Origin: an uncultured virus (IMG/VR IMGVR_UViG_3300020207_000018)
Lineage: Duplodnaviria; Heunggongvirae; Uroviricota; Caudoviricetes
Direction: 5' to 3' (one strand)
IMG/VR virus record: IMGVR_UViG_3300020207_000018
Location: 1 to 64,000 of that record
DNA length: 64,000 nt
Position 1 is the first letter of the stretch, and each line of letters opens with the position of its first letter. Of this stretch, positions 4,281-53,660 are shown piece by piece. The notes under the pieces are model-generated. The model was not told the origin of the DNA and did no database searches. It saw nothing but the letters and a program-made list of their open reading frames with translations. Made by a program: the position numbers and the translations under genes.

Positions 4281-4573
4281 TAATCTCTTCTCACATCCAA
4301 TTTACCGTCTTCGATAAAGTTCTCTGCACGAGCAACTCTCTCAATATCAGGTCGAAGTTCCAATGCTGACGATACTAACATGTCTATCTTAATCATTTCA
4401 TTAGACATGGTTCTTGCACGATTCTCTAGTGACTTACAGAACATAGTAAGCGTCTGAATGTCATCAACTATACCTTGAAGTATTTGTTTAATGATAATGA
4501 ATATAAAACTTCCCATAACTAAGGCGATAGCTACAGGGAAGCCCAACTCAGTTATCATTTCGAATACATCCAT
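4280..4573 (-). CDS. Small membrane protein with coiled-coil tail (probable start MDVFEM at 4573)
   Basis: GFPVAIALVMGSFIFIII transmembrane helix; a late promoter at 4582-4589 favours the 4573 start over 4609. Confidence 0.7.
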   Translation of the reverse strand: MDVFEMITELGFPVAIALVMGSFIFIIIKQILQGIVDDIQTLTMFCKSLENRARTMSNEMIKIDMLVSSALELRPDIERVARAENFIEDGKLDVRRD

Positions 4574-4581
4574 TATACTCT

Positions 4582-4595
4582 TATTTATATAAATA
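4582..4595. promoter_or_regulatory. Overlapping divergent T4 late (gp55) promoters, palindrome TATTTATATAAATA
   Basis: TATAAATA on minus (4582-4589, toward the curli cassette) and on plus (4588-4595, toward the riboswitch and peptide). Confidence 0.75.
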
Positions 4596-4600
4596 AAGGT

Positions 4601-4707
4601 ATCGTTCAACCCTTTTTCTAGGGTCGGAAGTAGTCATAAGACGAAGGAACGCATTGTTACGTTCATCTATTTTTAGACGGAAGTAGGCAATGGTGCTGAA
4701 GGAACGC
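4601..4707 (+). ncRNA. Tandem glnA-type glutamine riboswitch aptamers
   Basis: Two copies of CGTTCA-stem-CGGAAGTAG-stem-GAAGGAACGC (4603-4652, 4660-4707). P1 is CGTTC/GAACG; the inner stems differ in sequence but both pair (ACCCT/AGGGT and TCTA/TAGA; GTC/GAC and GGCA/TGCT). Confidence 0.8.
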
Positions 4708-4726
4708 AATCTTTTCGGAGATTGAC

Positions 4727-4879
4727 ATGACTAAATATCAAGCAATGCTCTTTCAAAGAGCAGTCAAAAAATCTCTTAGGGAAAAACATCTAAGCTCTAG
4801 GGCTAAGAATTATAAAATTGAAAAGAAGGAATCTGTAGAATTACCAAAGTATATTACAGATAACCCTTTTTATCCTTAA
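4727..4879 (+). CDS. Small basic peptide (50 aa, MTKYQAMLFQRAVKK...ITDNPFYP) downstream of the riboswitch
   Basis: Manual translation; GGAG RBS at 4717-4720, followed by a terminator. Confidence 0.65.
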   Translation: MTKYQAMLFQRAVKKSLREKHLSSRAKNYKIEKKESVELPKYITDNPFYP

Positions 4880-4882
4880 GAT

Positions 4883-4912
4883 AAAAAAAAGGGGACGTTA
4901 TGTCCCCTTTGT
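4883..4912. terminator. Bidirectional intrinsic terminator
   Basis: AAAAAAAAGGGGAC-gttat-GTCCCCTTT between convergent genes. Confidence 0.8.
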
Positions 4913-4928
4913 TATTTTTAACTAAAAA

Positions 4929-5210
4929 TTACTTTAGTTGAGAATGGATCTCATTGATTACTTCAGCTTTTGTTCCTGATCTCTTAACTTTGAGATTCTT
5001 CTTCTCTGCCATATCAAGTAGTTGAACTTTCGTTAACTTCTTTAGCTCGAATTTAGAAACAGCACCGTCAGCATTTCTATCTACAGAGACACCTGGTCTT
5101 GTAGAAGGAACTGGAGATGGTGTGACAGTGGTAGAAGTATTACTTTTACCTCTGTTTACTATGAAGTAACCGATCACAAATACTGCAACTGCAATCAAAA
5201 AATATTCCAT
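4929..5210 (-). CDS. Membrane-anchored protein with C-terminal HeH/SAP/Rho-N-like helical domain
   Basis: N-terminal transmembrane helix; LKKLTKVQLLDMAEKKNLKVKRSGTKAEVINEI. Confidence 0.6.
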   Translation of the reverse strand: MEYFLIAVAVFVIGYFIVNRGKSNTSTTVTPSPVPSTRPGVSVDRNADGAVSKFELKKLTKVQLLDMAEKKNLKVKRSGTKAEVINEIHSQLK

Positions 5211-5253
5211 AATGTACTCCTAATTAGGTTTTAGTTACCATCCTATCAGATCG

Positions 5254-5460
5254 TTACTTATCTAACAAGGGGTTTTTATCTTTTGCTTTACCAATTGCTA
5301 GGGCAAGTACTTCTAACCATTTGTAGACTTTTGCCCATAATTTGTCATCTGCTGGTGTTGGTGTCATAGCGACAATAACACTACAAATTGAGATAACAAC
5401 TGGAACTATCATAAGTAGATTCCAGATTCCCATTATAAAATCAATTATGCCTGAAAACAT
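5254..5460 (-). CDS. Small membrane protein (possibly holin-like)
   Basis: Hydrophobic, MTPTPADD motif, GGAGG RBS. Confidence 0.55.
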   Translation of the reverse strand: MFSGIIDFIMGIWNLLMIVPVVISICSVIVAMTPTPADDKLWAKVYKWLEVLALAIGKAKDKNPLLDK

Positions 5461-5485
5461 ATTGACCTCCTATTTTTTATGGTAT

Positions 5486-5905
5486 TTAGTTGTTTATATT
5501 ACCAATTGAATACTTAGTTGTAAGTTTCCAATCTGATTTTTCTTTATATGATACTACCTTTATTTGAGATAAAGGCGACTTAGGTTCTGATATTTTAGAT
5601 GGATCATTAACCTTCAATAAGTTCCATTGTTGTAAAAGATCAATGATTGTGTTTCTTCTACCAATGTCTGACTCATCAATATTGGTTTGTTTACCGTCTA
5701 GTAAAAATAGTTCTTTAAAGTGTACGATATAATACTTGCCTTTTTTATGAAGAATGTGACATGATTGAAATAACTCTTTGTCTTTCCTCGAAGCTACGCC
5801 TATACGTGATAAGGTTTCTCTTATCTTTAAAAAATCGTCTTTTTCGGGGAATGTTATTTCGATTAAGTCTTTTACTATATCGTGTTCATCCATTATTCTT
5901 ACCAC
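5486..5905 (-). CDS. regA: Translational repressor RegA
   Basis: DDFLKIRETLSRIGVAS, LFQSCHILHKKGKYYIVHFKELF. Confidence 0.95.
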   Translation of the reverse strand: MVRIMDEHDIVKDLIEITFPEKDDFLKIRETLSRIGVASRKDKELFQSCHILHKKGKYYIVHFKELFLLDGKQTNIDESDIGRRNTIIDLLQQWNLLKVNDPSKISEPKSPLSQIKVVSYKEKSDWKLTTKYSIGNINN

Positions 5906-6278
5906 CAGTTTTCATACTCTCTTTCAAGTCACGGTATTGTTTATCGTCTAATAACTCTAAATACTCTTTCGCTATTTTAGTTGATACACCATAAGATTCT
6001 CTTACAGTGTCTATTTTTTTAGATTCATATGGCTTCTGCCACTTGCTGAACCTTTTTCTTTTTCTAAGAGTATTTATTAAAAAAGAGTATTGAAGACGAC
6101 TGTCCAGACTGTGCCGGACATTCATTTCGTTGACGAAAAAGAGCGAATCTTGGTGATAAGATAATGCTCGATTTACTAGGAATGGTTGATAAGACTTCTC
6201 TTCTACCTCATCAACCATGATATCGACTTTGTCAAAACTGACATTTTTAACATAGTCGAATGGATTTCTTTTGGACAT
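5886..6278 (-). CDS. gp62: Clamp loader small subunit gp62
   Basis: YQPFLVNRALS, LQYSFLINTLRKRKRFSKW; synteny with gp44 and regA. Confidence 0.9.
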   Translation of the reverse strand: MSKRNPFDYVKNVSFDKVDIMVDEVEEKSYQPFLVNRALSYHQDSLFFVNEMNVRHSLDSRLQYSFLINTLRKRKRFSKWQKPYESKKIDTVRESYGVSTKIAKEYLELLDDKQYRDLKESMKTGGKNNG

Positions 6279-6577
6279 TAAGCAAGTGCTTGTTGTGTGA
6301 CAGAAGGCAATACTTTTCTTTGATATTCATTAATCAGTTCATCGCCTTTAAGTTCTTTACCAAAGTATACGATAGAACCATCATCAAGTGTTCTTTCAAT
6401 AAGTCCACTATTGAAACTTCTATCAACGACACCTTTACCATCTTGAGTATCTTGTGGTCTAGTGTCGTACCACATACTACTCAAACTATGAGCATGAATG
6501 CCTGAAACACCTTTTGCCCATTCTTCTGCTTCTAAGAGAACTCTTTGTCTCTCTACTTTATTTTTAAACTCCGTCAT
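6278..6577 (-). CDS. Hypothetical protein
   Basis: Tightly packed ORF with RBS. Confidence 0.65.
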   Translation of the reverse strand: MTEFKNKVERQRVLLEAEEWAKGVSGIHAHSLSSMWYDTRPQDTQDGKGVVDRSFNSGLIERTLDDGSIVYFGKELKGDELINEYQRKVLPSVTQQALA

Positions 6578-6699
6578 GTATTGTCTCCATCATTATATTT
6601 AACCCTTGACTTGTCAAACTGTCGATTTGCTGTTCTTTGAAAAGACTTTTCAATCTGTCTGTCAAACCACCTTCTAAACCATTGTCTAAGTTTACCCAT
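6574..6699 (-). CDS. Small hypothetical protein (41 aa, MGKLRQWFRRWFDRQ...)
   Basis: Manual translation; start and stop overlap both neighbours. Confidence 0.55.
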   Translation of the reverse strand: MGKLRQWFRRWFDRQIEKSFQRTANRQFDKSRVKYNDGDNT

Positions 6700-6875
6700 T
6701 ATGACCAACCTCCGTCTATCTCTTGTAAGACTTCGTTAGTTGCACCTAGGATATCGGTAAGAGGTTCGTCAAAGATTGCGATATCTTCATGACCCTCTTC
6801 TATTAATGCTTTAACTATTTCACCAGCATCAACAATGATTTGTAGCTGGTATTTCATTTCTTCTGATATACTCAT
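6699..6875 (-). CDS. Small acidic hypothetical protein (58 aa, MSISEEMKYQ...)
   Basis: Manual translation; ATGA overlap with the gp44 stop. Confidence 0.55.
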   Translation of the reverse strand: MSISEEMKYQLQIIVDAGEIVKALIEEGHEDIAIFDEPLTDILGATNEVLQEIDGGWS

Positions 6876-7822
6876 TTGAATTTACACTCCGACATAATTT
6901 CTGTTAAACATGCAACGAAATTGATTTCTGAATCCATTGCAAAGGCAGACTTATGTTGATAGTCTGCTATTAATAAAACTGAAGCAGGTATACTAGATGG
7001 TTGTAATTTCTTTTCTAAAGCATTGAACAACTTCCTATATAGAGTGTTGAAGTCCTGATCAGAATTCTGACCGACCCACTTTCTCATACCAGCCCAATCT
7101 TTGTCCTTTAACATGTCAAGTAATGGTGTTAGTTTCTCTTCTGATAAAGTTGCAAGAAGGCCTGAGTCAATCTCACCACTTGCACCATATCTTTGCACTT
7201 CATTTAGACATCTTCTAAAGTCAGGAAAGAATTTGAGAATAAGTTCTACTAGTACTTGTGTATCATATTTGATGCCTTCACTATCACAAATCTCCATGAG
7301 ACGTGAGAGAAATACACTTGCTAGTCTTTGTTTCTCTTCTGGTGTGATACTGAAATCTATAACAGTACAACGAGAATGAAGAGCAGGAATAATCCTGTTC
7401 TTATAGTTACACGTGAATATGAATCTACAGTTAGAAGAGAACTCTTCAATAAAGTTTCTCAATGCAGGTTGAACTGAGTCAGCAGATATGTAATCTGCCT
7501 CATCTAAGATAACAACTTTAGGACCACCTGCAAGTGATACTGTAGATGCAAAGTTTTTGATCTTTGTTCGTAGGGTGTCAATCAAACGGCCCTCGTCTGA
7601 GCCGTTAATGACAATAAAGTCTGCACCCAATTCATTACATAATGCTTTTGCAACTGTAGTCTTACCAACCCCAGCAGAACCACTTAGTAATAGATTTGGT
7701 ATTTCACCATTCTTTACGAACTCAAAGAATGATTTTTTGATAGATGCAGGAAGTATCGTGTCCTCAATTGTTTGAGGACGATACTTTTCAACGTAAAGAA
7801 ATTCCTTACTCATGGAGACCAA
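6872..7822 (-). CDS. gp44: Clamp loader large subunit gp44
   Basis: VEKYRP, GSAGVGKTT Walker A, ILDEAD, SRC motif. Confidence 0.95.
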   Translation of the reverse strand: MVSMSKEFLYVEKYRPQTIEDTILPASIKKSFFEFVKNGEIPNLLLSGSAGVGKTTVAKALCNELGADFIVINGSDEGRLIDTLRTKIKNFASTVSLAGGPKVVILDEADYISADSVQPALRNFIEEFSSNCRFIFTCNYKNRIIPALHSRCTVIDFSITPEEKQRLASVFLSRLMEICDSEGIKYDTQVLVELILKFFPDFRRCLNEVQRYGASGEIDSGLLATLSEEKLTPLLDMLKDKDWAGMRKWVGQNSDQDFNTLYRKLFNALEKKLQPSSIPASVLLIADYQHKSAFAMDSEINFVACLTEIMSECKFK

Positions 7823-36565: not shown

Positions 36566-37261
36566 TTATAGGATCAAGTTGCCGCTTTCGTCTATATCAT
36601 ACTCAAAATTTGAATCATTCCAACCAATTCGTGAATTTTTATCATCCATGCAATTGACATCTAAATTAAAAGATATACTGTATCGATCTTTGTTTGTTAG
36701 ATTGGGTTCGACCATATGCATTAACCCACTAGGAAAAATGTATAAGTGACCTGTCTTAGGTTGTATCTGATAAGATTCAATCATTCTATTGTTGCCAGGA
36801 AATGCTCCTGCAACTTTATGATTTGTATCTATGAAAGTTAAATCGCCTTCGTCACCATCAGCATGTATATAAAATACACCTGAATAGAAACAACCATTGT
36901 GTAAGTGAGGTCTGTTCCATGCACCATTGTCATTAATGTTAGCCCATGAGTTATGCATATCAACACGGTGTGCATCTTTGTTTAATCCCATGAAAGGTAA
37001 TAACTCGTCTCTGACTAAACGTTTAATTGATCTTATACATTTAATAAAAGTTGGATGTTGATCGCAACCATCATTTGATTGCCAACCTGTATATGCATTT
37101 GATATCTTTCGACCAACAGGATCTTTCTTTCGCATACCATCAATCTCTCTTTTTAAGAGATCAAAGTATTCTGCATTCATCAATGTAGGTTCTTTATCTG
37201 CATCTTTGCCTAAAAAATCTCTATGAAAAACAAATGCAGGAAATAATAATTTTACACTCAT
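36566..37261 (-). CDS. Putative 2OG-Fe(II) oxygenase (TIGR02466-like)
   Basis: SWANIN, PHLH, SGVFY, FPSGLMHMVEPN, RYSISFN. Confidence 0.85.
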   Translation of the reverse strand: MSVKLLFPAFVFHRDFLGKDADKEPTLMNAEYFDLLKREIDGMRKKDPVGRKISNAYTGWQSNDGCDQHPTFIKCIRSIKRLVRDELLPFMGLNKDAHRVDMHNSWANINDNGAWNRPHLHNGCFYSGVFYIHADGDEGDLTFIDTNHKVAGAFPGNNRMIESYQIQPKTGHLYIFPSGLMHMVEPNLTNKDRYSISFNLDVNCMDDKNSRIGWNDSNFEYDIDESGNLIL

Positions 37262-38106
37262 TCTTCTACCTCATTATGAAAAGGACATTCAGGTGGTGGT
37301 TCATCTTCTTTGAAGTATTTACCTTTTTCTTGCCAATAACCTTCGTTTCTATATGGCCCAAGTTTAGTTCCCCTTAGTCTTGATTCATCGGAGTATTCTC
37401 TTCTACCTTGTTCATCCATAGACATCATTTCTGCATGTGAAGTTACTGAACTTCTGTTGTCCTGAAATTCTCTAGGACTACGTAATGTATACGTAGAATT
37501 CCATTCTTCTCTTTTAAAAGGAATAACCTGACACAATGGTGTGCCTTTTTTTATAGTAAATGAATGATTAACTCTAGGATAAAAAATTATTTGTGAATTA
37601 TCTTGGCTCACATTGAACTTATCTGTATCGATAATTCCTTGCCATGTAGCAAAGTATCTATTTTGAAATAAGAAAGGGTCTAAGTAAAGACATGAATAAC
37701 CCTCTGGTGTTATAATGTTCCATGGGTTTCTCATTTTAAATGCATCTTTGACAGGACCATCATCGCCAAAATAATCGAAAGCATTTTCAAATTGTTCTTT
37801 GGGGTGTGTAGGTGAAGCGTAATGTTCTCCTGAAGGATCGAAAGTTCTAACGTCTGTTGTACTTACACCGTCTTTTGCATTGTTACCTACGATAACTTCC
37901 ATGTCTCTGTTTGCAAGTAGGTACCAACCACTCTTTAACCAATCATCCATAGCAGGACATGCTCTGATAGTTTGAGTATTAACACCACGTACTACTGCAT
38001 TTACTTTAATTCTTTTCCACCAATCTGGATGCCATTTCTTTGCAAGAACTGGTTTAAAGTCTCTGAGAGTCTTCTCGTTATATGTAATAAAGTCTATCGT
38101 TGGCAT
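37258..38106 (-). CDS. Conserved hypothetical protein (DUF6065-like), often near phage oxygenases
   Basis: TIRACPAMDD, NPWNIITPEGYSCLY, GIIDTD, IKKGTPLCQVIPFKR. Confidence 0.6.
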   Translation of the reverse strand: MPTIDFITYNEKTLRDFKPVLAKKWHPDWWKRIKVNAVVRGVNTQTIRACPAMDDWLKSGWYLLANRDMEVIVGNNAKDGVSTTDVRTFDPSGEHYASPTHPKEQFENAFDYFGDDGPVKDAFKMRNPWNIITPEGYSCLYLDPFLFQNRYFATWQGIIDTDKFNVSQDNSQIIFYPRVNHSFTIKKGTPLCQVIPFKREEWNSTYTLRSPREFQDNRSSVTSHAEMMSMDEQGRREYSDESRLRGTKLGPYRNEGYWQEKGKYFKEDEPPPECPFHNEVEE

Positions 38107-38815
38107 TATAAAACTCTTCGCTAACTCCTATCTCTACTTCATCGCCTCTTAAAACAATTGATCTTCTATCCATGTATCTAGCAGTTTCATTTGGTGCATC
38201 TGCACCGTGTGGTATTCTGCCGTCAAACATTACTAATCTATTTGGTACAAACTCCACTTCAGCGATTTGGTGGTTTTTAATATGTTCGTTTCTACCTTCT
38301 AAACCCTGTTGAGGTTCATCATATAATCTTAATGTGCCACCCCATTCGGGATTCCAATATGTATTGTAATAGTATAAGAAAGATAAATTCCATGAATCAT
38401 TAGTATCACAATCTGCATGAGTTGTTCCATGACAACCCATTGTCTGTGAGTTTAAACCCATGTACTGAAATCTTTTCCATTTGAAACCGAAATCTGTACA
38501 TATTCTTCTATTTAGATAGTGAGCAGGATAAGAATCTTTCTTATCAATATCTCCTTCAACATTGTGAAATCCGAAATCTTTATTGTCCCGATCAGCCTTG
38601 AAGAAACTTGCACCCCAAAAACTATGGTGAGGTAATCCTGTTGGGCTTTCGCTACCCACTTGATTTGTTTTAGACCAAATATTACTGCTTGTAAATCTTT
38701 GATTAATCCAATGCCATATAGAAGTCTCTAAGTAATTATCAATTATGTAGACTTTATCTAAAGGTAATGATTGAATATGAAAAGGAGAATCAACCTTTTC
38801 TACAAGCAGGCTCAT
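38078..38815 (-). CDS. 2OG-Fe(II) oxygenase (P4H-like)
   Basis: HAD, FLYY, WNPEWGG, PNRLVMFDGRIPH, RRSI. Confidence 0.85.
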   Translation of the reverse strand: MSLLVEKVDSPFHIQSLPLDKVYIIDNYLETSIWHWINQRFTSSNIWSKTNQVGSESPTGLPHHSFWGASFFKADRDNKDFGFHNVEGDIDKKDSYPAHYLNRRICTDFGFKWKRFQYMGLNSQTMGCHGTTHADCDTNDSWNLSFLYYYNTYWNPEWGGTLRLYDEPQQGLEGRNEHIKNHQIAEVEFVPNRLVMFDGRIPHGADAPNETARYMDRRSIVLRGDEVEIGVSEEFYNANDRLYYI

Positions 38816-38816
38816 T

Positions 38817-39368
38817 TTATGCTATTAATGACTTTTGAGGTGATGGAAAATTATTTGAATAATACTCAAAGTCTTGTAGTGTGTCTTCTCTTGTTTCGCC
38901 TATTTCATTACATACATTAACGTATACATTCCATATAACGTCTGAATATTCCATAACTCTTCTTGCATCTGATCTTAAAGGGTGATTTGAGCCCTCTCTT
39001 CCTGCTATAGTTACTTCTAGTAAATCACGGAAACCATATGCTTGTACTTGATCATCGATATAGTTTTGAGCCATATCAGATAGTTTGTTTGCATACTGAT
39101 TGTTTAATGAAACACCAGCAGGTGGTTCAGACTGATTGATATATTCTTCGATAGCATCTATTTCATCTGAGTTTAGATTTATTTTGACCTGATCGTTAAA
39201 ACATTTATCTTCTTCCCATTTCTCAATTTTAACTTCGATGTCATCGTACACCAATACATCATATTCAAAACCAAGATTTGGTCTATCTGTGTTTTCGAAA
39301 GAGTATTCTAATCCATTTGGTTTTCTAATGATTAGATTACTGTTTTCATCATAAATTAACATATTCAT
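38817..39368 (-). CDS. Hypothetical protein (possible fibre assembly factor); likely start MNMLIY at 39368
   Basis: GAGG RBS; promoter at 39378-39406. Confidence 0.55.
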   Translation of the reverse strand: MNMLIYDENSNLIIRKPNGLEYSFENTDRPNLGFEYDVLVYDDIEVKIEKWEEDKCFNDQVKINLNSDEIDAIEEYINQSEPPAGVSLNNQYANKLSDMAQNYIDDQVQAYGFRDLLEVTIAGREGSNHPLRSDARRVMEYSDVIWNVYVNVCNEIGETREDTLQDFEYYSNNFPSPQKSLIA

Positions 39369-39377
39369 AATTACCTC

Positions 39378-39406
39378 ATTATACACTTGTGTGTGTTAAA
39401 TTTCAA
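39378..39406 (-). promoter_or_regulatory. Sigma70-type promoter TTGAAA-N17-TATAAT
   Basis: Near-consensus elements with 17-nt spacing. Confidence 0.65.
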
Positions 39407-41007
39407 GAGACTTTATTCGCTCTCGCATACGCTCTTTCATATACGTCTAACATATTTATATCACTGGTATCCATGTCTTTTATCCATGGGCCACCACGTG
39501 TCCAGTGAATTGCTAAAGCATGTGGTTTGTCTAAATGTGTTTCATATCCTTCAGTTATAATATGTCTAGGTGGTATTCTACTGATCTTGTCTGTCCATTC
39601 AAATTGATGTAAATACTTTCCTGACTCTGTATTCACTACTTCTGGTGTTAACTTCTTACAGTCTTCGTGTGCATTATTGAATACCATAAGACTAGACCAC
39701 AATTTCTTAGGATAAGAAACATTCTTTTCGCCATCAAATTTAGTATCACTATGATTTTCGAAATCGTATTGTACACAAGCAATAGCATCTTTTGGGTCTA
39801 AGAAATAGAATAGTGGTAGTATAGACTTACTAAACAATATGTCATCATCTAAGAAGATACTGAAACCTTCATAATTTTCTAGGTAAGGTATTAAGAATCT
39901 ACTATATGTAAACTCTGTTGATTGATTAGCATACTCTCTAGTGTATTCAGGTATCTTTGATACATCTAGTATCTTAATATTAGGTTGCCAGTCTTTTATA
40001 AATTCATACATGTCACCTTTACCAAAACCATATTCAATTCCTTTTTGAAGCAACTTAACATTTGTTTCAGCAAGATCACCATGACGACTATCGTAACCCA
40101 CATAGATTGATATAGGTTTGCCTTTTGCCATTTTCATAATGTTTTTATTGAAGTCTGTAACTGTACTTCTAAAACCGATATCAGCAAAAGCACTATGCAT
40201 TTCTATAAAACCCTCTGTATATGTAAATGAAAGATGTGTTGGTTTATCTTTCTTTTCAACAAAGGCTTTCCATAATTCAATTACTTGTTCAGCTGATAGA
40301 ACTTCTGAATCAAATAAATCAAACTTATCCCATACAAACATTTCCATATCTGGATCATCTATCATTTCAAATACTGCTGATCTTACAGAACCTGGATGTA
40401 TTCTAAGAGTGTATCGTTCTTCTTCTGAAGAAGGTTTGTTCACTACACCTTGGATTGGATTCCAAAGGCCTTCATGTTTGATACTATCAATTAACCAGTG
40501 TGCTTTAGCACTGTGATAATAAGTTGAATTATTGATTTCTAATTGTCTTTCAGTTGGGCCTTCTGCACCAAAAACATATTTTGTATAGTCTGTTATCTTT
40601 TGATATTCATCATTTCGGTTTTTGAAATCAAAGCCAGAATGACCAGGTATTGGTGTTTCAGGTTTTTCAGTATAACCGTACTGCAAATAATATTGATAGA
40701 CATATGCTTGATGTTGTAATTGATTAAACGGTTGTAATTTTGTTGTATCAGAATAATCGTATAATCTTTCGTCTATCAATTTAGAAGCTTCTTTCCATTT
40801 AACATGCTTTAGTTTTGGTAATTTATTCTTCATCAACCAATCTAAAGACTTATATGCTTCAGTTTCCTTGTAGTCTTTGGATAGTTCGATACTACCAATA
40901 TGACAATGATCCATGAAAATGACTTCATCGCCACTATCTGGCCCAAATGGTGATCTTCTATTTTGAAATGCTTCTTGTACGGCTTCTAAGGTTTCTAATT
41001 TTCTCAT
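39403..41007 (-). CDS. Two-domain protein: unknown N-terminal domain plus GT-A (GT8-like) glycosyltransferase
   Basis: IYVGYDSR, STEFTYSRFLIPYL, FLDDD, WSSLMVFN, LHQFEW, IHWTRGGPW. Confidence 0.8.
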   Translation of the reverse strand: MRKLETLEAVQEAFQNRRSPFGPDSGDEVIFMDHCHIGSIELSKDYKETEAYKSLDWLMKNKLPKLKHVKWKEASKLIDERLYDYSDTTKLQPFNQLQHQAYVYQYYLQYGYTEKPETPIPGHSGFDFKNRNDEYQKITDYTKYVFGAEGPTERQLEINNSTYYHSAKAHWLIDSIKHEGLWNPIQGVVNKPSSEEERYTLRIHPGSVRSAVFEMIDDPDMEMFVWDKFDLFDSEVLSAEQVIELWKAFVEKKDKPTHLSFTYTEGFIEMHSAFADIGFRSTVTDFNKNIMKMAKGKPISIYVGYDSRHGDLAETNVKLLQKGIEYGFGKGDMYEFIKDWQPNIKILDVSKIPEYTREYANQSTEFTYSRFLIPYLENYEGFSIFLDDDILFSKSILPLFYFLDPKDAIACVQYDFENHSDTKFDGEKNVSYPKKLWSSLMVFNNAHEDCKKLTPEVVNTESGKYLHQFEWTDKISRIPPRHIITEGYETHLDKPHALAIHWTRGGPWIKDMDTSDINMLDVYERAYARANKVS

Positions 41008-41036: not shown

Positions 41037-42167
41037 TTATGACGTAATTGGAGATGCTGGCCACTGTTGTGACAATACACCGTCCCAACGATTCACTGGT
41101 GTTCTACCTTGTGTAGCGTAAGTACTTGGTGATCTATGTTGATAGGTAAACGGAGTTCTACCTTGTCTAGAATATGTACTTGGTGATCTATGTTGATAGG
41201 TAAACGGAGTTTGACCTTGTCTTGCATATGTCACAGGTTGCCTATGTTGATATGTACTTGGCGATTGTGTTATTCTAGGATCTCTGTAAGTACTTGGTGA
41301 TCTGTGTTGATATGTGCTAGGTACACGATATGCTCTAGGATCTCTGTAAGTACTTGGTGATCTATGGTTATACGTGCTAGGTACTCTATAACTTCTTGGA
41401 TCACGATATGTAGATGGTGATCTGTGTTGATATGTGCTAGGTACACGATATGATCTTGGGTCTTGATATGTAGACGGCGATCTATGTTGATATGTGCTAG
41501 GTACACGATATGATCTAGGATCACGGTATGTAAATGGCGATCTATGGTTATATGTAAACGGTGACCTATGTTGATACGTAAACGGTGATCTATGTTGATA
41601 AGTCGAAGGTTGTCTAGCGCCTCTAATATTAGGTTCTTGTGCTGATACAGGGTGTCTGTAACCTGCTGGTTGTTGTGCTGATCTAATATTAGGTTCTTGT
41701 GCTGATACAGGGTGTCTATAACCTGCTGGTTGTCTAGCATTACCAATTACTGGTTGTTGTGCTGATACAGGTGCTCTATATGCTGCTGGTTGTCTAGCAT
41801 TTCTAATATTAGGTTCTTGTGCTGATCTGATATTAGGTTCTTGACCGCTTCTAATATTAGGTTCTTGTGCTGATCTAATATTAGGTTGTTGACCATTCGC
41901 AATATAAGGCGACTGGAAAGTAAACGGTTGCCTTGCGTTATTAGGTTGTTGAGCATTTGCAATATAAGGCGACTGGAAAGTAAACGGTTGCCTTGCGTTA
42001 TTAGGTTGTCTAGCATTTGCAATATAAGGTGACTGATATGTAAATGGATTCTGGAATGTAAATGGATTCTGGAATGTAAATGGATTCTGGAAAGTAAAAG
42101 GTGTCTGCACAGGAACAGAAGCCTGTGTAATACCTTGAGCATTTGCTGGATAAAAACCTGTTGCCAT
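41037..42167 (-). CDS. Pro-delimited repeat protein B (39 units, 334 of 376 aa); antiparallel complement of 42179..43954
   Basis: Units PFTFQN, PNNARQ, PYIANAQQ, PNIRSAQE, PAGYRHPVSAQE, PSTYQHRS, PSTYRDPRSYRV, PSTYSRQGRT. Confidence 0.85.
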   Translation of the reverse strand: MATGFYPANAQGITQASVPVQTPFTFQNPFTFQNPFTFQNPFTYQSPYIANARQPNNARQPFTFQSPYIANAQQPNNARQPFTFQSPYIANGQQPNIRSAQEPNIRSGQEPNIRSAQEPNIRNARQPAAYRAPVSAQQPVIGNARQPAGYRHPVSAQEPNIRSAQQPAGYRHPVSAQEPNIRGARQPSTYQHRSPFTYQHRSPFTYNHRSPFTYRDPRSYRVPSTYQHRSPSTYQDPRSYRVPSTYQHRSPSTYRDPRSYRVPSTYNHRSPSTYRDPRAYRVPSTYQHRSPSTYRDPRITQSPSTYQHRQPVTYARQGQTPFTYQHRSPSTYSRQGRTPFTYQHRSPSTYATQGRTPVNRWDGVLSQQWPASPITS

Positions 42168-42178
42168 TTTACTTTAGA

Positions 42179-43954
42179 TTACTTAGGTGATGGTTTAAAG
42201 AAGAAGAAGTTGTGAGCTAATACACCATTTGCAAAGAAATTGTGATTGTCGCCAACGTTCTTCAAGTTATACACCTGTTGTGAATCTTTCTCCTCTATTT
42301 TAATTATTTCTAGTCCTATTTCTGTACCTAGTACAGCATCTGTCATGGTCATCAAATGATCACCGACTGCGATTTCTGAATTTACAAATTCATCTCCACC
42401 TTCTTCTTTGTGGAATTCTTTAAATTTCTCTAAGTTGATAACACCCCATTCACCATTCATTGTTCTAAATGGATGTTCTGAAGTTGTTTCAAGTATTCTA
42501 CCGTCTGATAAATGTATCTCATGTATTGATACTTCTCTTGGTTGCATCAACTCTTCGACTACACCGATCTCTAATTTATTTGTCTCTTCGTTCCAAGTCA
42601 TTACGTCTTGACCAACTTCTACTGTTTCAATTGGTACATGACTGCCATCGCCCAACCATATCATTGTGCCGGCAACAAAACATCCTTTGCCACCTCCAGG
42701 AATGTTACCAGGTATTGGACCAAACGGTTGATAGAAGTACACTGCTGGGAAGATAAATGGATATCTTGCTGTTTGTTGTGTAGTACTTGGTTGCCTTGCG
42801 TTATTTGGTTGCCTTGCGTTGTTTGGTTGCCTTGCGTTATTAGGTTGTCTAGCAGCAACTGGTTGTCTTGCCTGATACGTAAACGGCGCACGGAATGTAA
42901 ATGGAGTCCTTGCGTTATTAGGTTGTCTTGCCTGATACGTAAACGGCGCACGGAATGTAAATGGAGTCCTTGCGTTATTAGGTTGTCTTGCCTGATACGT
43001 AAACGGCGATCTATGGTTATACGTAAACGGTGATCTGTGGTTATATGTAAACGGTGATCTGTGGTTATACGTATACGGTGATCTATGTTGATACGTAAAT
43101 GGCACCCTATATGATCTTGGATCACGGTATGTAAATGGTGATCTGTACGCATACGTAAACGGTATCTGATATGATCTTGGATCACGGTATGTAAATGGTG
43201 ATCTATGTTGATACGTAAATGGCACCCTATATGATCTTGGGTCTCTATATGTAAATGGTGACCTATGTTGATACGTAAACGGTGTTTGTGCGTTTCTGAT
43301 ATTTGGTTCTTGTGCAGACCTAATATTTGGTTCTTGACCGCTTCTAATATTAGGCTCTTGAGCAGCAACTGGATGTTGATAAGATGCTGGTGTTTGTCTA
43401 TTTCTTATAAACGGAGTCTGAGCACTTACAGGGTGATTATACCCAGCTGGTGTTTGTGCGTTTCTGATAAACGGATTCTGTGCATTAACAGGATGTTGAT
43501 AAGAAGCAGGTTGTTGTGCGTTTCTGATAAACGGATTCTGTGCATTTACTGGATGTCTATAGAATGCTGGTGTTTGTCTATTTCTTATAAACGGATTCTG
43601 TGCATTAACAGGATGTCTATATGATACAGAGTTTTGTGCATTCGCAATATAAGGCGATTGAGCATTCGCAATATAAGGATACGGCTGTTGTGCATCTCTT
43701 ATAAATGGATTCTGTCTATTAGCAATATAAGGATACGGCTGTTGTGCATCTCTTATAAATGGATTCTGTCTATTAGCAATATAAGGATATGGCTGTTGTG
43801 TAGGTTGTTGACCTGATGCGTTATTCCACCCACTAGGAGTTTTAATGTAAATTTGATCTACATCTTTCCAAGTGTTTGAAGCAGTTTTAACCCATGCACC
43901 TTGGGTTGAATTCCAACCTGAGGGGGTTTTTACTTTCTGTGAGCCTGTCGCCAT
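42179..43954 (-). CDS. Pro-delimited repeat protein A (39 units) with C-terminal Hint domain; putative fibre subunit
   Basis: W-rich N-terminal cap, repeat residues 55-388, then CFVAGT...TSEHPF...HNFFANGVLAHN. Confidence 0.85.
   Translation of the reverse strand: MATGSQKVKTPSGWNSTQGAWVKTASNTWKDVDQIYIKTPSGWNNASGQQPTQQPYPYIANRQNPFIRDAQQPYPYIANRQNPFIRDAQQPYPYIANAQSPYIANAQNSVSYRHPVNAQNPFIRNRQTPAFYRHPVNAQNPFIRNAQQPASYQHPVNAQNPFIRNAQTPAGYNHPVSAQTPFIRNRQTPASYQHPVAAQEPNIRSGQEPNIRSAQEPNIRNAQTPFTYQHRSPFTYRDPRSYRVPFTYQHRSPFTYRDPRSYQIPFTYAYRSPFTYRDPRSYRVPFTYQHRSPYTYNHRSPFTYNHRSPFTYNHRSPFTYQARQPNNARTPFTFRAPFTYQARQPNNARTPFTFRAPFTYQARQPVAARQPNNARQPNNARQPNNARQPSTTQQTARYPFIFPAVYFYQPFGPIPGNIPGGGKGCFVAGTMIWLGDGSHVPIETVEVGQDVMTWNEETNKLEIGVVEELMQPREVSIHEIHLSDGRILETTSEHPFRTMNGEWGVINLEKFKEFHKEEGGDEFVNSEIAVGDHLMTMTDAVLGTEIGLEIIKIEEKDSQQVYNLKNVGDNHNFFANGVLAHNFFFFKPSPK
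42209..42682 (-). other. Hint / intein-like autoprocessing domain
   Basis: Cys1 (CFVAGT), block B TSEHPF, VYNL, terminal His-Asn. Confidence 0.85.
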
Positions 43955-43987: not shown

Positions 43988-46285
43988 TTATGAATAAAGA
44001 ATCCATAGATCACCAACTGCTCCGTCACCTGAAGTAGGTGCAGAAGTTGATTGATATATGTTTCTCGCAACACCACCACTATTTGAAGCGTATGATGTTG
44101 AAATTTGTGATGCTCTAAAGTTTGCGTCTGTTAATGTTAACGAACCTGTAGAAGCACCAGTTGCAGTTGTTGTAGCAACTACAAACTCATCAGCACTTTC
44201 GTCCCAACCCATAAATGCGTTGTCGCCAGTTGAACCTCTTTCTAACACAAGACCAAGGTCATTTGAGTTAGCACCTGTGTTACCAGACCCTAATTCAATC
44301 AATGCATCACTGATTGTTGTATTTGTAGAATCTACAGTTGATGTAGTACCATTAACTGTTAGGTTACCAGATAATGTTAAGTTACCAAATTGTACGTTAC
44401 TTGTTGTAGCAACTGCCTGACCAATACTTATTTCACCTGAACTAATTGAGACACCAGTTCCTGCACTAATATGACTTCTAACTTCTGAAGCGCTTGGGCC
44501 AGTATATGTGATTACACCAGTAGATGAATTGTATGCTAAACTTCCATCACCACCTGAATCAGTAACAGAGATTGAACCTCTTGCATCTGAATCAGCATAT
44601 TGTGTAATTGTTGTTGCAAGTGTTAAGGTACCATTTACATCATCGTATGTTGATGTGATGCCTGTACCTGCTGTTACTAAAGCATTTACTCTGTCATCAA
44701 CTCTTTCCTCTGTGAAGTATAAGTTTGATGAACCTTCTGTTAACGAATCTGTATCTGGTAATAATGCATTAACTCTAGCATCTGCTCTAGCGTTTGTAAA
44801 GTAAAGGTTTGAACCTTCTGAAATATGAGCAGTTGTTGAAGGTATTGTAATAGCACCTGTACTTGAATCATATGCACCTGCACCAGAGTTTGTACTTAGA
44901 GATGCTCTTGCTCTAGCATCTGTATAGAATAAGTTTGTTGAACCTTCTGTAATGTCATCTGAATCACCACTTAGTTCACTTAATGCATCTGCTGTATCTA
45001 CTTGTGCATCAACATAAGTTTTGACTGCTAACTGAGAAGGTACTAAAGTATCTGAAGCACTACCAAAATTAACATCTGTATCGATTGCATTTTGAACTCT
45101 AGCGTCTGCTCTTGCATTTGTAAAGTATAAGTTTGTAGAGCCTTCTGTTATTTCATCTGTATTGTCTTTACTTGCGACTTGTGAATCTACATATGCTTTA
45201 ACTGATTGTTGAGAAGGTATTCTTGTTTCACTATTAGACACCATATTATCTTCATCGATAAGAGCTGCTGTGATTCTAGCATCTGCTCTAGCGTCAGTGA
45301 AATATAAGTTTGAACCTTCTGCTAAATCACCAGTGTCATGGTTAGCAATACTAGTAACTGTACCAGTTACGTTACCAGTTAAGTTTCCTTCGAATGTTCC
45401 TGCAACAAAAGTTTCTGAACCGACTGTCCATTTATCGTTGGTCTCATCCCATAAGAATGTTTTTGCAGTTGAACTACCTCTAGTTACACTCAAACCAGCA
45501 TCTTCTGTTGGTGAACCTGAAGTAAAGTTACTGTTTAATGCGATTGTGTTGTCTGCAAGGTTAATTGTCTCTGAGTTTACAGTTGTTGTTGTACCTGAAA
45601 CTGTTAGTGAACCTGAGATTGTAACATCATCGTTAAGTGAAATAACACCATTTCCGTTACCACTCAATACTAAGTTAGTATCAGCTGATCTGGACACGAT
45701 TTGATCAACTGCAATATTGTTACTAAATGTGATGTTGTTTCCTGCACTGTTGGTAATATTGTTACCGTCTTCGATTTGAACTGGACCTTTAAGTGCAATA
45801 ACACCTGATCCTGTTGCATCTAACTCTAAATCACCAGAACCACTTGTCTGTATAGACATGTTTTGGTTAGAGTCAGCACTAAAGACGATTGTACCTGAGT
45901 CATCTGAAATAACCTGTTGTCCGTTAACATATAAAGAACCAGGTCCAACGTATACGTCTTTCCATGTTCTACTTGATGAACCTAAGTCGTATGTGTTATC
46001 TGCGCTTGGTATGATGTTACCTGCAAATGTACCACCACCTAAGTATGATAATACATCTGAGTCGCCGTATTGGGCTGCACCTGCGATTGTTAGTGTGTTA
46101 GCAGCATCATCGTATGTTAATGTGATGCCTGTACCTGCTGTTAAAAGTTGAGCGACTCTATCGTCTACTGACTCATCTAATGCTGATGCTGAAATTGAAC
46201 CAACGTATGATCCAGAAGAGCTAATAACCTCTGTTCCACCGATTGACAGGCCGTTTTTAATATTAAAATTCTTTTCCCCTGCCAT
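43988..46285 (-). CDS. Tail-fibre-like structural protein with EGSxNLYFTxARA repeats
   Basis: About six TEG(S/T)xNL(Y/F)(F/Y)T repeats, GNLTVNGTT motifs, C-terminal GDGAVGDLWILY. Confidence 0.8.
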   Translation of the reverse strand: MAGEKNFNIKNGLSIGGTEVISSSGSYVGSISASALDESVDDRVAQLLTAGTGITLTYDDAANTLTIAGAAQYGDSDVLSYLGGGTFAGNIIPSADNTYDLGSSSRTWKDVYVGPGSLYVNGQQVISDDSGTIVFSADSNQNMSIQTSGSGDLELDATGSGVIALKGPVQIEDGNNITNSAGNNITFSNNIAVDQIVSRSADTNLVLSGNGNGVISLNDDVTISGSLTVSGTTTTVNSETINLADNTIALNSNFTSGSPTEDAGLSVTRGSSTAKTFLWDETNDKWTVGSETFVAGTFEGNLTGNVTGTVTSIANHDTGDLAEGSNLYFTDARADARITAALIDEDNMVSNSETRIPSQQSVKAYVDSQVASKDNTDEITEGSTNLYFTNARADARVQNAIDTDVNFGSASDTLVPSQLAVKTYVDAQVDTADALSELSGDSDDITEGSTNLFYTDARARASLSTNSGAGAYDSSTGAITIPSTTAHISEGSNLYFTNARADARVNALLPDTDSLTEGSSNLYFTEERVDDRVNALVTAGTGITSTYDDVNGTLTLATTITQYADSDARGSISVTDSGGDGSLAYNSSTGVITYTGPSASEVRSHISAGTGVSISSGEISIGQAVATTSNVQFGNLTLSGNLTVNGTTSTVDSTNTTISDALIELGSGNTGANSNDLGLVLERGSTGDNAFMGWDESADEFVVATTTATGASTGSLTLTDANFRASQISTSYASNSGGVARNIYQSTSAPTSGDGAVGDLWILYS

Positions 46286-51064: not shown

Positions 51065-51994
51065 CTAATTATTTAATTGGGAATATGGGACTTTTGTATG
51101 TATTTTTTCTACTGTAGTTGGATCAGTTTTTACGTATGCTTCTTCTAATTGTTTTACAGTACCGTCTGCATCTTTAACATAAACTTGTTTAACTTCTGCT
51201 ACAGGACCTATAGGTCTTCTGCTAGAATATGTTATCTGATATGTAAATGGTGATCTATGTTGATATGTAGTTTGTACAACAATGTTACCACTTCTTGTAT
51301 TCTGAGCATTTGCAATATATGGTGAAGGTTGAGAAGCAGAAACCCTATATGTATCTGGCGATCTATGTTGATACGTAAATGGTATTCTATGTTGATAGAA
51401 CGATGGTGATCTATGTTGATACGTAAATGGTGTTCTACCTGTTGTAGGATATGTTATAGGTTGCCTATGTTGATATGTTGTTGGTGTTCGCCCTGTTGCC
51501 TGATATGTTGAAGGCTGTCTTGCATCTCTAATAAATGGATTCTGTCTATCAACAGGATGTCTGTAAGTTGTAGGTGAAGGTTTATTTCTTATAAACGGAT
51601 TCTGTTTATTTACAGGATGTCTGTAATTAGCTGATATACGATAGCTACCAATTATCGGATTCTGTCTGTTAACAGGATGTTGATAAGCTGCTGGTTGACG
51701 TTGATTTGCAACATAAGGTGATGGTCTATTTCTAATAAACGGATTCTGTTGTTGTGCAATGTATGGTGATTGAAATGGACTTCTTGCGATAGCAGCTGTC
51801 TGTGCGTTTGCTATGTAAGGAATAGGCACTCTAGTATTAGCAACTGTCTGAGCGTTTGCTGATGCACGGGCATTAGCAATGTACGGCACAGGCGTAGTAC
51901 CGTTAGTAGAATTTTGTCTATTAGCAATATAAGGATACGGCTGTTGTCCTGGCGTTGCGTTTGAATTGCTATATGTTACTTGTACGGTTGGCAT
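51065..51994 (-). CDS. Pro-delimited repeat protein D; antiparallel complement of 51996..53660
   Basis: Residues 19-260 use the same unit alphabet as A and B; C-terminal VKQVYVK...EEAYVK cap. Confidence 0.85.
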   Translation of the reverse strand: MPTVQVTYSNSNATPGQQPYPYIANRQNSTNGTTPVPYIANARASANAQTVANTRVPIPYIANAQTAAIARSPFQSPYIAQQQNPFIRNRPSPYVANQRQPAAYQHPVNRQNPIIGSYRISANYRHPVNKQNPFIRNKPSPTTYRHPVDRQNPFIRDARQPSTYQATGRTPTTYQHRQPITYPTTGRTPFTYQHRSPSFYQHRIPFTYQHRSPDTYRVSASQPSPYIANAQNTRSGNIVVQTTYQHRSPFTYQITYSSRRPIGPVAEVKQVYVKDADGTVKQLEEAYVKTDPTTVEKIHTKVPYSQLNN

Positions 51995-51995
51995 T

Positions 51996-53660
51996 TTATA
52001 CTATTATTGGCCCCCCACTACCTGCATTATATGCTGCTCTTAAACTTATGGGGCTTGATGACCAAGAACCGTTGAAGTATGAAGCTATATGAAAATATGT
52101 ATAATAAGTGTCTGTGCCTTTTGTTGCTTTTATTCCAAAATAAACATCATTTGATGTTAATTGTACTGGATTACCTGTGCTGTCGTATACACCCCACTTA
52201 AAAAATCTAGCAGTGCGAGTACCATTAAATCCACCCCTTGAAGTTGAACCAGACCAGAAATTATAATATTGGCCTCTGGTTTTTCCACAAACATGTGGAT
52301 AAAATCCATAACTGTTTCCACCTCCTCCGTAACAATTTGTTTGAGCTTGAGTACCTGATACCGATTCACCACTTGCATAATATGCTACATCAAAATTCCA
52401 AGTATCGTCAATTATACCATTAGCATTCAAATCGGTAATAGGCATATAAAATCTATAATAAAAACTCCAACCACTATTACTAAAAGAGTTATAATGACCA
52501 TACGATATTCTAAAAGCCCCTAAAGGATTTGTCTGAACAGTATTATTGTTAGCTGCAAAATCAAATTGCATATAACAACCACATTCGGTATGATTAAAAC
52601 CAGGATTACCAGTTGCTAATTGAAGAGTATTCCAACTTGGTACACTAAACATAGAAGCAGTTCCTGAAGGTGGGTCAGAATTTATATAATTCGTACTACC
52701 ACCAAAAGGATATACATCCCAAACAGGATTACTTATACCTGAGCCCCAAGGTTGAGGGTTCGGTTGATTAGCTAAAGTTGCACTTGTTGCTGTTGAACTT
52801 CCAGACAGTGCTGATTCGCCTACAATACCTTCATATGATGTTGGTACCTGAGCAGTCGATGGTGACTGATATATGTAAGGCGTTTGGCCTTGTGCTGAAT
52901 AAGTCGAAGGCGATTGATAAATGTAAGGCGATGGTCTTTGCGCCTGATACGTAAACGGATTTTGATAAATCGATGGCACCCTATATGTTTGAGGACTTCT
53001 TTGTTGTGCTTGATAAGTTGAAGGCACTCTATAAGGTACAGGTTGTTGATTTGACTCCTGTGCGTTTATATTTGCTGGTGACTGGTGTTGATACGTAGTA
53101 GGTTGTTGTGCCTGATATGTTACAGGATTTCTGTAACTTCTTGGGTCACGATATGTACTAGGTGATCTATAAGCATAACTTACAGGATTTCTGTAACTTC
53201 TTGGGTCACGATATGTACTAGGTGATTGATGTTGATACGCAACTATAACCTGTGCATTTCTTGGGTCTCTATAAGTTGAAGGACTTTGATGTTGATACGT
53301 AAACGGTGTTTGTGCGTTTGCAGGATACGGATACGGATTCTGTCTATTAGCAATATAAGGTGATTGTGCATCGGCCTGATAAGTATACGTTTGTTGTGCG
53401 TTTCTTATAAAAGGATTTTGTCTCGATCTTATGTTAGGTTGCTGTGCGTTTCTTATAAAAGGATTTTGCCTATTAACAGGATTTCGATAAATTATTGGTT
53501 GTTGATTCTGATAAGTCGAAGGAGACTGAAACGTATAAGGAACAATCGATGGTTGTTGTCTTATATTTGGTGCTTGAATGTTAGCAGGTTGCCTTGCTAT
53601 GTAAGGTTGCTGAAAACTACCGCCATTTAAATTGTGTTTAATGTAAATTTTATCTGCCAT
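51996..53660 (-). CDS. Pro-delimited repeat protein C with C-terminal globular (receptor-binding-like) domain
   Basis: Residues 19 to about 272 are repeats, followed by about 280 aa of G/S/N/aromatic-rich sequence. Confidence 0.8.
   Translation of the reverse strand: MADKIYIKHNLNGGSFQQPYIARQPANIQAPNIRQQPSIVPYTFQSPSTYQNQQPIIYRNPVNRQNPFIRNAQQPNIRSRQNPFIRNAQQTYTYQADAQSPYIANRQNPYPYPANAQTPFTYQHQSPSTYRDPRNAQVIVAYQHQSPSTYRDPRSYRNPVSYAYRSPSTYRDPRSYRNPVTYQAQQPTTYQHQSPANINAQESNQQPVPYRVPSTYQAQQRSPQTYRVPSIYQNPFTYQAQRPSPYIYQSPSTYSAQGQTPYIYQSPSTAQVPTSYEGIVGESALSGSSTATSATLANQPNPQPWGSGISNPVWDVYPFGGSTNYINSDPPSGTASMFSVPSWNTLQLATGNPGFNHTECGCYMQFDFAANNNTVQTNPLGAFRISYGHYNSFSNSGWSFYYRFYMPITDLNANGIIDDTWNFDVAYYASGESVSGTQAQTNCYGGGGNSYGFYPHVCGKTRGQYYNFWSGSTSRGGFNGTRTARFFKWGVYDSTGNPVQLTSNDVYFGIKATKGTDTYYTYFHIASYFNGSWSSSPISLRAAYNAGSGGPIIV

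Follow-up and report, generated by a model that had tools for sequence, protein, structure and literature searches.

The stretch of DNA analysed here (the window) comprises the first 64,000 nucleotides (nt) of a 78-kb fragment of an uncultured marine tailed virus, IMG/VR record IMGVR_UViG_3300020207_000018, and carries two pairs of adjacent genes, here called A/B and C/D, whose four products are all built of short units starting with Pro. In A/B the lengths of these units along one protein are the mirror image of those along the other, the units that face each other in the mirrored arrangement are of complementary types, and among many related gene pairs, including a hold-out set, such facing units covary at particular positions. 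Cognate chains match each other, and the non-cognate combinations in the window do not. From these patterns we infer that the two chains pair physically: A with B, and separately C with D, would probably form a long in-register antiparallel duplex, the shaft of a fibre in a pelagimyophage-like phage of the T4 type. The genes and the parts of them needed below are the following (lengths in amino acids, aa).

42179–43954, minus strand: gene A, an X-type chain of 591 aa with a conserved head, a repeat shaft, a Gly-rich linker and a predicted C-terminal Hint domain
43793–43954, minus strand: head of A (aa 1–54), highly conserved (MATGSQKVKTP.GWN...YIKTPSGWNNASGQ), with invariant columns in an alignment of 30 X proteins
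42791–43792, minus strand: repeat shaft of A (aa 55–388), 39 Pro-started units of 6, 8, 10 or 12 residues
42683–42790, minus strand: linker of A (aa 389–424), ending in GGGKG directly before the Hint nucleophile
42209–42682, minus strand: predicted Hint (bacterial intein-like) domain of A (aa 425–582), from motifs, Pfam, PDB, an AlphaFold2 (AF2) model and structure matches
41037–42167, minus strand: gene B, a Y-type chain of 376 aa that starts 11 nt past the stop of A
41100–42101, minus strand: repeat shaft of B (aa 23–356), 39 units with the lengths of A reversed and types opposite to those of A
41040–41099, minus strand: C-terminal tail of B (PVNRWDGVLSQQWPASPITS), conserved and opposite the A head, with R360, W361, D362, W369 and P370 invariant in the alignment of Y proteins
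51996–53660, minus strand: gene C, a second X-type chain of 554 aa, with a shaft and a C-terminal domain of about 260 aa without known family
51065–51994, minus strand: gene D, a second Y-type chain of 309 aa, the mirror partner of C

Mirrored unit lengths and partner specificity

When the proteins are split at every Pro, the repeat regions of A and B turn out to be of the same size (334 aa and 39 units each) and their series of unit lengths are exact mirror images. From the N to the C terminus A reads 10, 8, 10, 8, 10, 8, 12, 8, ... 6, 6, 6, 6, and B gives the same series from the C to the N terminus. This exact match fixes an antiparallel register in which unit A(i) faces unit B(40-i), and each such couple of facing units is referred to as a cell. 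An earlier, sequence-only reading of this DNA had assigned the facing repeats to positions 41100–43792, and the limits are exact, the interval beginning with the B repeat region (41100–42101) and ending with that of A (42791–43792). The facings that it had picked out between A and B (PFTYAYRS/PVIGNARQ, SVSYRH../..PRITQS, PAFYRH/PRAYRV, PYIANAQN/PSTYQHRQ and PVAARQ/PFTYQS) are all present in the list of A/B cells. C and D can be aligned antiparallel without gaps over about 260 aa, with their boundaries coinciding, and this alignment contains the two facings that had been ascribed to that pair (PVSYAYRS/PIIGSYRI and PYIANRQN/PTTYQHRQ).

Relatives of these genes are frequent in marine viromes. 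We found 418 homologues of B at E <= 0.001 in marine metagenome protein sets and 261 confirmed stretches related to B in IMG/VR, of which the best 80 (73 loci) were analysed. Nearly every locus with an intact region had two adjacent repeat genes on the same strand, X upstream and Y downstream, and these loci provided a first set of 40 distinct related X/Y pairs. Searching again with D as the query yielded 79 loci, from which 32 pairs without any protein in common with the first set were taken as a hold-out set (19 of the A/B type, 11 of the C/D type and two others). The chains were aligned by their Pro boundaries alone, the identity of the residues playing no role. In all 40 pairs of the first set, reversing Y brings its Pro boundaries into coincidence with those in X at one antiparallel offset (for example at 56 of 60 or 61 of 65), and in every case this match exceeds any parallel one as well as the highest value among 200 shuffles of the Y units. 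The hold-out set behaves in the same way, with 31 of 32 pairs above the maximum of 100 shuffles and the remaining one tied. Facing units were of equal length on both chains in 1794 of the 1849 cells, and in 1769 of those 1794 this length was even.

The mirror is also specific for the partner. Within the window, 47 of 52 boundaries match between A and B and 23 of 37 between C and D (shuffle maximum 16), while for the non-cognate combinations A-D and C-B the matches fall within the shuffle range. In 34 of the 40 pairs of the first set no Y matched the X better than its cognate did, and only Ys with an identical unit series matched it equally well. For the idea that the rules could serve as a "programmable zipper", the evidence at hand is this contrast between cognate pairs, which match, and non-cognate pairs, which do not.

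Several individual loci add detail to the pattern. In L018 and L048 there are cells in which one chain has gained four residues (PSRT, PGRQ) and the partner likewise has 4 extra residues, and the same two loci contain self-complementary cells, with PFTGQN opposite PFTGQN. Another two loci (L153 from position 1265 and L155 from position 3471) hold a differently built pair, in which the first open reading frame (ORF; 217 aa) begins like a Y chain and the second has a Gly-rich tail; the mirror rule is obeyed there as well, at 27 of 29 boundaries. In L052 (X 4463–5956, Y 5995–7617) the Y chain has 540 aa, the same length and the same unit-length series as the Y of L026, and the X chain has 497 aa against 585, so that only 63% of the boundaries match; this locus represents a deletion variant or else an artefact of the assembly. 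A and B are each weakly self-complementary when reversed: 31 of 64 boundaries coincide in A and 30 of 52 in B, where shuffles reach at most 27. The reason is that blocks of 12-8-12-8 occur in both halves. As for the origin of the mirror, a sense/antisense relationship or an inverted duplication was rejected, given that the identity between A and the reverse complement of B does not exceed 0.336, and so was an inverted repeat at the DNA level, only one inverted repeat of 14 nt being found.

Unit types and covariation between the partners

Besides having the same length, the two units of a cell are of different kinds, one T-type and one Q-type. T-type units include PxTYxHRS, PFTYR., PFTFQN and PxTYARQGQT, and Q-type units include PNIRxAQx, PYIANAxQ, PV.AQ., PNNARQ and PYPYIANAQx. 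Along the shaft of A the units A1–A18 are Q-type and those from A19 on are T-type, with alternation near the end, and B has the opposite type throughout. In the 8-residue cells of the first set we counted 599 T:Q combinations, three T:T and four Q:Q; in a further 244 cells of this length one or both sides were left unclassified by simple patterns. The hold-out set gave 677 cells with a T unit facing a non-T unit and only seven T:T cells.

Within the T/Q cells, mutual information was computed for every position of the T unit against every position of the Q unit. Over the 295 distinct 8-residue cells of the first set the strongest coupling was T2-Q6 (0.98 bits), followed by T8-Q2 (0.74), T6-Q4 (0.71), T8-Q4 (0.67), T6-Q2 (0.66) and T2-Q8 (0.65). 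The odd positions of these units are nearly invariant and gave little covariation signal. In comparison with shuffles made within each locus (40 pairs, 641 cells unique per locus) the six couplings reach z values of 35–50, and none of 1000 shuffles attained the observed values. In 6-residue units the strongest couplings were T6-Q2 (1.16 bits) and then T4-Q2. All six couplings recur in the 159 new distinct 8-residue cells of the hold-out set, with z of 11–17 and again no shuffle in 1000 reaching them, and the C/D family taken alone (45 new cells) gives z values from 2.1 to 6.3. In the same hold-out cells T2-Q2 (z 1.7) and T5-Q5 (z 0.6) showed no covariation. The sequence-only reading had compared the variation of facing units with that of compensatory base pairs and proposed an analysis over many genomes, and a coupling of this compensatory kind is found there, much stronger than could be seen from the window alone.

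The coupling between T2 and Q6 can be read as a code: F goes with A or G, L with Q, N with Y or S, T with K, Q or R, and A with S or N. It is independent of which of the two chains bears the T unit, and each of its states is found in 6 to 70 loci. Side-chain volumes are opposed at three of the coupled pairs, T2-Q6 (r -0.50), T6-Q2 (r -0.64) and T8-Q4 (r -0.74). This compensation is seen only where the two positions, i and j, add up to the unit length L or to L+4; the other three pairs (i+j = L+2, that is, 10 in 8-residue units) correlate positively, so that a simple rule of large facing small fails as a description of all the couplings. The sum i+j = L+2 corresponds to the register that places Pro opposite Pro. 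In direct-coupling analysis, pairs with i+j = L+2 or L made up five of the eight top inter-chain couplings in 8-residue units, four in 6-residue units and four in 10-residue units. From their place at these sums, the coupled positions may well be in direct side-chain contact.

Several of the facings chosen by eye turned out to be instances of family rules, and this explains three of the examples. PYIAN.. opposite ..HRQ is one of them (p 4e-43, hold-out p 5e-9), and the opposition of PVAARQ/PFTYQS to PNNARQ/PFTFQN is another (p 3e-18, hold-out p 9e-5); in 6-residue cells Phe at T4 goes with Asn at Q2 in 25 of 27 cells, and Tyr at T4 with Val, Ala or Ser. The third, YAY opposite xIG, was replicated in part. 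In the first set nine of the ten distinct cells with Gly at Q4 have an aromatic residue at T6; among the other 285 there are 28 (p 3e-8). This association runs one way, as Tyr at T6 is also found with Arg at Q4 (21 distinct cells). Its recurrence in both pairs of the window, like that of YIAN opposite ..HRQ, is unlikely to be due to chance; for YAY/xIG a hand estimate from unit counts gave about 1/10 x 1/5. The claim that stretches of PFIR lie opposite PSTY and those of PNIR opposite PFTY fared less well. It applies in part to the window, where four of six PFIR units face PSTY (the other two face PFTY) and eight of nine PNIR units face PFTY or PYTY (one faces PSTY), but is not supported in the family (p 0.33), in which T2 couples to Q6 and Q8 and not, judging by the hold-out value given above, to Q2. 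SVSYRH/PRITQS and PAFYRH/PRAYRV are single cases. PAFYRH occurs once in the data, and Ile at its place faces Ser, not Ala; a cell found in two loci, PVDYRV/PAKYQN, with Asp opposite Lys, hints that these positions can interact.

The proposed duplex, its alternatives and known fibres

If the chains pair as proposed, register would be kept at three layers. The first is the series of unit lengths, a bar code mirrored between the chains; the second is the rule that every cell sets one T-type against one Q-type unit; and the third would be a residue code at the even positions, linking T2 to Q(L) and Q(L-2), T(L) to Q2 and T(L-2) to Q4. The deviant units that had been seen to face deviant units would be instances of this last layer. 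Equal numbers of residues in each cell imply the same rise per residue in both chains, and the even unit lengths, together with covariation at even positions only, suggest a period of two. This is the period of a beta strand, whereas polyproline and collagen helices repeat every three residues. The duplex could then be a continuous antiparallel beta ribbon of two chains, in which Pro lies opposite Pro with the NH groups of these positions pointing outward, and the even face would bear the specific packing, F2, Y4, H6 and S8 against Q8, A6, R4 and N2. The argument uses the known geometry of antiparallel sheets. Single chains were predicted to be unstructured, with a predicted local distance difference test score (pLDDT) of 30–40 for the A shaft in AF2 and of 0.56 for the ESM Atlas model of B. 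As to stoichiometry, three duplexes are possibly arranged around one axis. As extended strand, 334 residues would make a shaft of roughly 110 nm.

Some observations weigh against this proposal. In six of the 40 pairs of the first set the own partner is not the best match; these include L052, the naturally mismatched pair. Some high direct-coupling scores lie off the diagonal (T2-Q2 and T8-Q5, for example), and the scores are noisy because the effective number of sequences is only about 23 at 80% identity. Ancestry by tandem repetition can inflate covariation. Moreover, the couplings at i+j = 8, 10 and 12 are inseparable from coupling within units (Q2-Q4, T6-T8), so that the register may place Pro opposite Pro or be shifted by two. 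The general statement that atypical units face atypical units was not borne out in the window by a crude test, the distances from the class consensus of facing units showing no significant correlation (Spearman 0.17, p 0.22, 45 cells), and in the hold-out set the YAY/xIG association held in only three of six cells (p 0.36).

One alternative accepts that the chains pair but takes Y for a full-length assembly template or chaperone of X, released after folding and absent from the finished fibre. The genes of phage fibre chaperones often lie directly after that of the fibre (T4 gp38 and those of the Tfa type), which is the position of Y; besides, Y is little more than repeats, beginning at residue 2 in most loci, and it is X that bears the variable C-terminal domains. 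On the other hand, a one-to-one match of residues over 250–560 aa and the position of the conserved Y tail opposite the conserved X head look like a permanent structural partnership, and no known chaperone family was matched in Pfam or PHROG. We regard this role of Y as unlikely.

A slightly less probable alternative is that covariation reflects a shared history and not contact, blocks of units having been duplicated together in both genes under selection on length and type only. The repeats have clearly expanded through tandem duplication, adjacent cells often bear the same pair of variants, and the effective number of sequences is low. But the coupling survives the collapse to distinct cells, the shuffles within loci and the hold-out, which includes the paralogous C/D family, and the T2-Q6 code does not depend on which chain has the T unit, each state recurring across several loci. 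The coupled positions also cluster beside the antiparallel diagonal, with compensation of volume in three of the six pairs, whereas the variable facing positions T5 and Q5 do not covary, which history alone would not lead one to expect. That the listed facings are chance coincidences, chosen by eye among many variable units, is very improbable: the crude test of deviance within the window, the two single cases and the failure of PFIR/PSTY over the family would agree with it, but both pairs of the window, which are independent, contain YAY/xIG as well as YIAN/..HRQ, these two are associated throughout the family, and the covariation against within-locus shuffles and in the hold-out largely refutes it.

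Among known structures the closest analogue of the proposed duplex is the needle at the tip of the T4 long tail fibre protein gp37, a six-stranded antiparallel element. The chain of the needle (domains D10-D11, PDB 2XGF) runs out to the tip and back, D10 being made of residues 811-881 and 1010-1026, and a large residue packs against a small one, G921 against F970 (PMC6957217). The needle is like A/B in being a long and thin element of a phage fibre with strands of opposite direction side by side, but it is a homotrimer of one self-folding chain with iron bound by His, whereas A and B are two gene products with a modular code of units. Iron-binding HxH motifs of the gp37 type are absent from A, B, C and D, and a profile search gave no sequence match of the repeats to a PDB fibre chain.

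Other long assemblies of extended segments resemble the proposed duplex in part. Coiled coils such as leucine zippers and the arms of SMC and Rad50 are made of alpha-helical heptads, and residues at fixed positions set their pairing specificity over long range. They share with A/B the long pairing of extended segments, a specificity carried by short repeats and the coexistence of orthogonal pairs, and differ in that the A/B units have 6, 8 or 10 residues, start with Pro and have the period of two that points to beta strands. In the stalk of the streptococcal antigen I/II an alpha helix pairs antiparallel with a polyproline-II helix of the same chain. Here too two types of repeat pair antiparallel into a long stalk, but the repeats of antigen I/II are of differing length and belong to one chain, unlike A/B, with two chains and equal numbers of residues in each cell. 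A collagen-like fibre was discarded, as no run of at least four G-x-x triplets is found in A–D and the unit lengths (6, 8 and 10) are nearly all even. The Cementoin repeat of Pfam (PF10511), made of hexapeptides that are substrates of transglutaminase, was matched by A with 24.1 bits, under the cut-off of 27, and by 11 of 30 X proteins, the best at E 5.9e-13. This is probably a compositional likeness among short Pro/Gln repeats; if real, it would suggest cross-linking between Gln and Lys.

Chain ends, genomic setting and significance

At one end of the proposed duplex the conserved head of A aligns antiparallel with the conserved tail of B, in the cells YIKT/PITS and PSGWNNASGQQPTQQ/PVNRWDGVLSQQWPAS, and the AF2 model of the head is a small beta sheet with a pLDDT of about 60. 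The alignment of the conserved X head with the conserved Y tail suggests a common end for attachment. The other end of X, away from the head, is variable and comes in three kinds: some X chains have a Gly run followed by Hint there, others a short tail that ends in ..EP, and others again about 150 aa forming an unrelated domain. Single-sequence AF2 modelling of the C-terminal part of C gave a pLDDT of 34.

Hallmarks of the Hint family are an N-terminal Cys or Ser nucleophile, a block-B TxxH motif and a C-terminal His-Asn. In A they correspond to Cys425, TSEH at 491–494 and His581-Asn582, followed by Phe583 and 8 more residues. The domain matches Pfam PF14890 with E 5e-8 and 33.3 bits, under the cut-off of 35.8 (the family is matched at E <= 0.001 by 11 of 30 X proteins), and PDB 2lwy with E 2e-4. 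The AF2 model of residues 423–585 has a pLDDT of about 90, and VIA-align gives it a Z of 19.6 to the bacterial intein-like (BIL) BIL2 domain 6tmm (root-mean-square deviation 2.3, 150 residues aligned), of 17–18 to inteins (18.3 to the gp41-1 intein) and of 15.9 to hedgehog 1at0. On the evidence of this model, the C-terminal domain of A is a Hint fold. The +1 residue is Phe583 instead of Cys, Ser or Thr and only nine residues follow the domain, so we rejected a splicing intein; the lack of a +1 nucleophile precludes the standard splicing of inteins. In comparison with other BIL and Hint domains, that of A shares the fold, Cys1, TxxH and His-Asn, but it ends a fibre shaft, lacks the +1 nucleophile and is followed by nine residues.

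Most likely the Hint domain would cut itself off A at Gly424/Cys425 after assembly, without splicing. This would leave mature A with a Gly run at its end, as in its relatives without Hint. In those Hint-less X proteins (L004, L008, L015-L017, L050, L051 and others) the conserved ..EP terminus lies few residues past the Gly run, near the cleavage site expected in the forms with Hint. C-terminal intramolecular chaperones of the Peptidase_S74 type in tailspikes and fibres cut themselves off after assembly, and the role proposed for the Hint domain would be the same, with an unrelated fold and chemistry; among the Pfam matches of the window proteins and X proteins there is none to S74. In the antiparallel arrangement a thioester at the C-terminal Gly of A would adjoin the N terminus of B, and it might join A and B covalently instead of being simply hydrolysed.

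The window corresponds to the structural region of a T4-like myovirus, with all genes on the minus strand, and encodes portal, sheath, major capsid protein, terminase, a baseplate wedge subunit, a VrlC-like protein of 2255 aa and several fibre-like proteins. Judged by the major capsid protein, the cultured phages closest to it are Methylophilales phage Melnitz, at 66% identity, and Pelagibacter phage HTVC008M, at 65%. Both pairs sit amid fibre-like proteins, between the VrlC-like and baseplate wedge genes on one side and the neck genes on the other. A host recognition cluster has been described for pelagimyophages, and the A/B and C/D region corresponds to it (PMC7029224); the available parts of that article describe the cluster but not these genes, and the words "proline" and "intein" are absent from them. 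Immediately upstream of A lies a gene of 765 aa (43988-46285, minus strand) with a repeated motif of its own (..GSxNLYFTxARADARV..) and a match to phrog_697, "structural protein". It precedes the pair in 65 of 73 loci, and its product may be the element to which the duplex attaches. Downstream, the following genes can be assigned.

39403–41007, minus strand: glycosyltransferase-like gene, GT8-like in its C-terminal half (Pfam PF01501, E 7e-5, 23.0 bits, under the cut-off of 24.3)
38078–38815, minus strand: 2-oxoglutarate (2OG)-Fe(II) oxygenase gene
36566–37261, minus strand: second 2OG-Fe(II) oxygenase gene (for the two oxygenases together, Pfam PF13640 and PF13759, above their cut-offs)

Together with ORFs of 189 and 282 aa, located before the first and the second oxygenase respectively, they form a block 3' of the pair (36566-41007, minus strand). 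The glycosyltransferase-like gene follows the pair in 73 of 73 loci, the oxygenases in 70–72 and the whole block in 70–73 of 73. Conceivably the Pro-rich shaft is hydroxylated and glycosylated in the manner of collagen or extensins, but this synteny is little proof, because the loci come from related phages.

No cultured relative was found by megablast in 50,697 GenBank phage records, and in the same records tblastn gave only one weak match with B (a Ruminococcus phage, over 37% of B) and none with the A head, the low-complexity filter of BLAST being able to mask matches between repeats in these searches. B has no family match in Pfam or PHROG, and its look-alikes in the ESM Atlas were only other extended Pro-rich proteins. 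The single match of a profile of 30 Y proteins to PDB sequences (E 0.23) was an unrelated ribosomal protein. No fusion of X and Y was found among five longer homologues (661–695 aa), which is weak evidence. We found no publication containing any of five unit motifs, nor such a pair in the portions available to us of the literature on tail-fibre pairs, cyano- and pelagimyophages, the HTVC008M fibre and fibres with Hint. The "two-protein chain-like fibre" of phage A1002 is not comparable, being described as globular dimer beads on a rope protein (PMC13730344). As far as the literature found goes, a two-chain fibre with a mirrored code is undescribed.

If the chains zip as proposed, the pair would be a hetero-duplex of beta type extending over hundreds of residues, and its partner code could be read from the sequence. 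To our knowledge, protein science has such readable partner codes only for coiled coils and collagen. A stronger version, which we put forward tentatively, is that nature has here produced a protein "duplex" whose pairing code can be read and can evolve, and that this code alone decides which chains zip. In that case A/B and C/D could be orthogonal fibres on a single virion, and one could write new cognate pairs at will. The system would offer a handle on how register is kept during the assembly of long fibres and on the design of orthogonal protein zippers, and also, given that both genes must change together, on how phages alter the length of their fibres. The family is abundant in marine viromes and is located in the host-recognition region of relatives of the phages that infect SAR11 and OM43.

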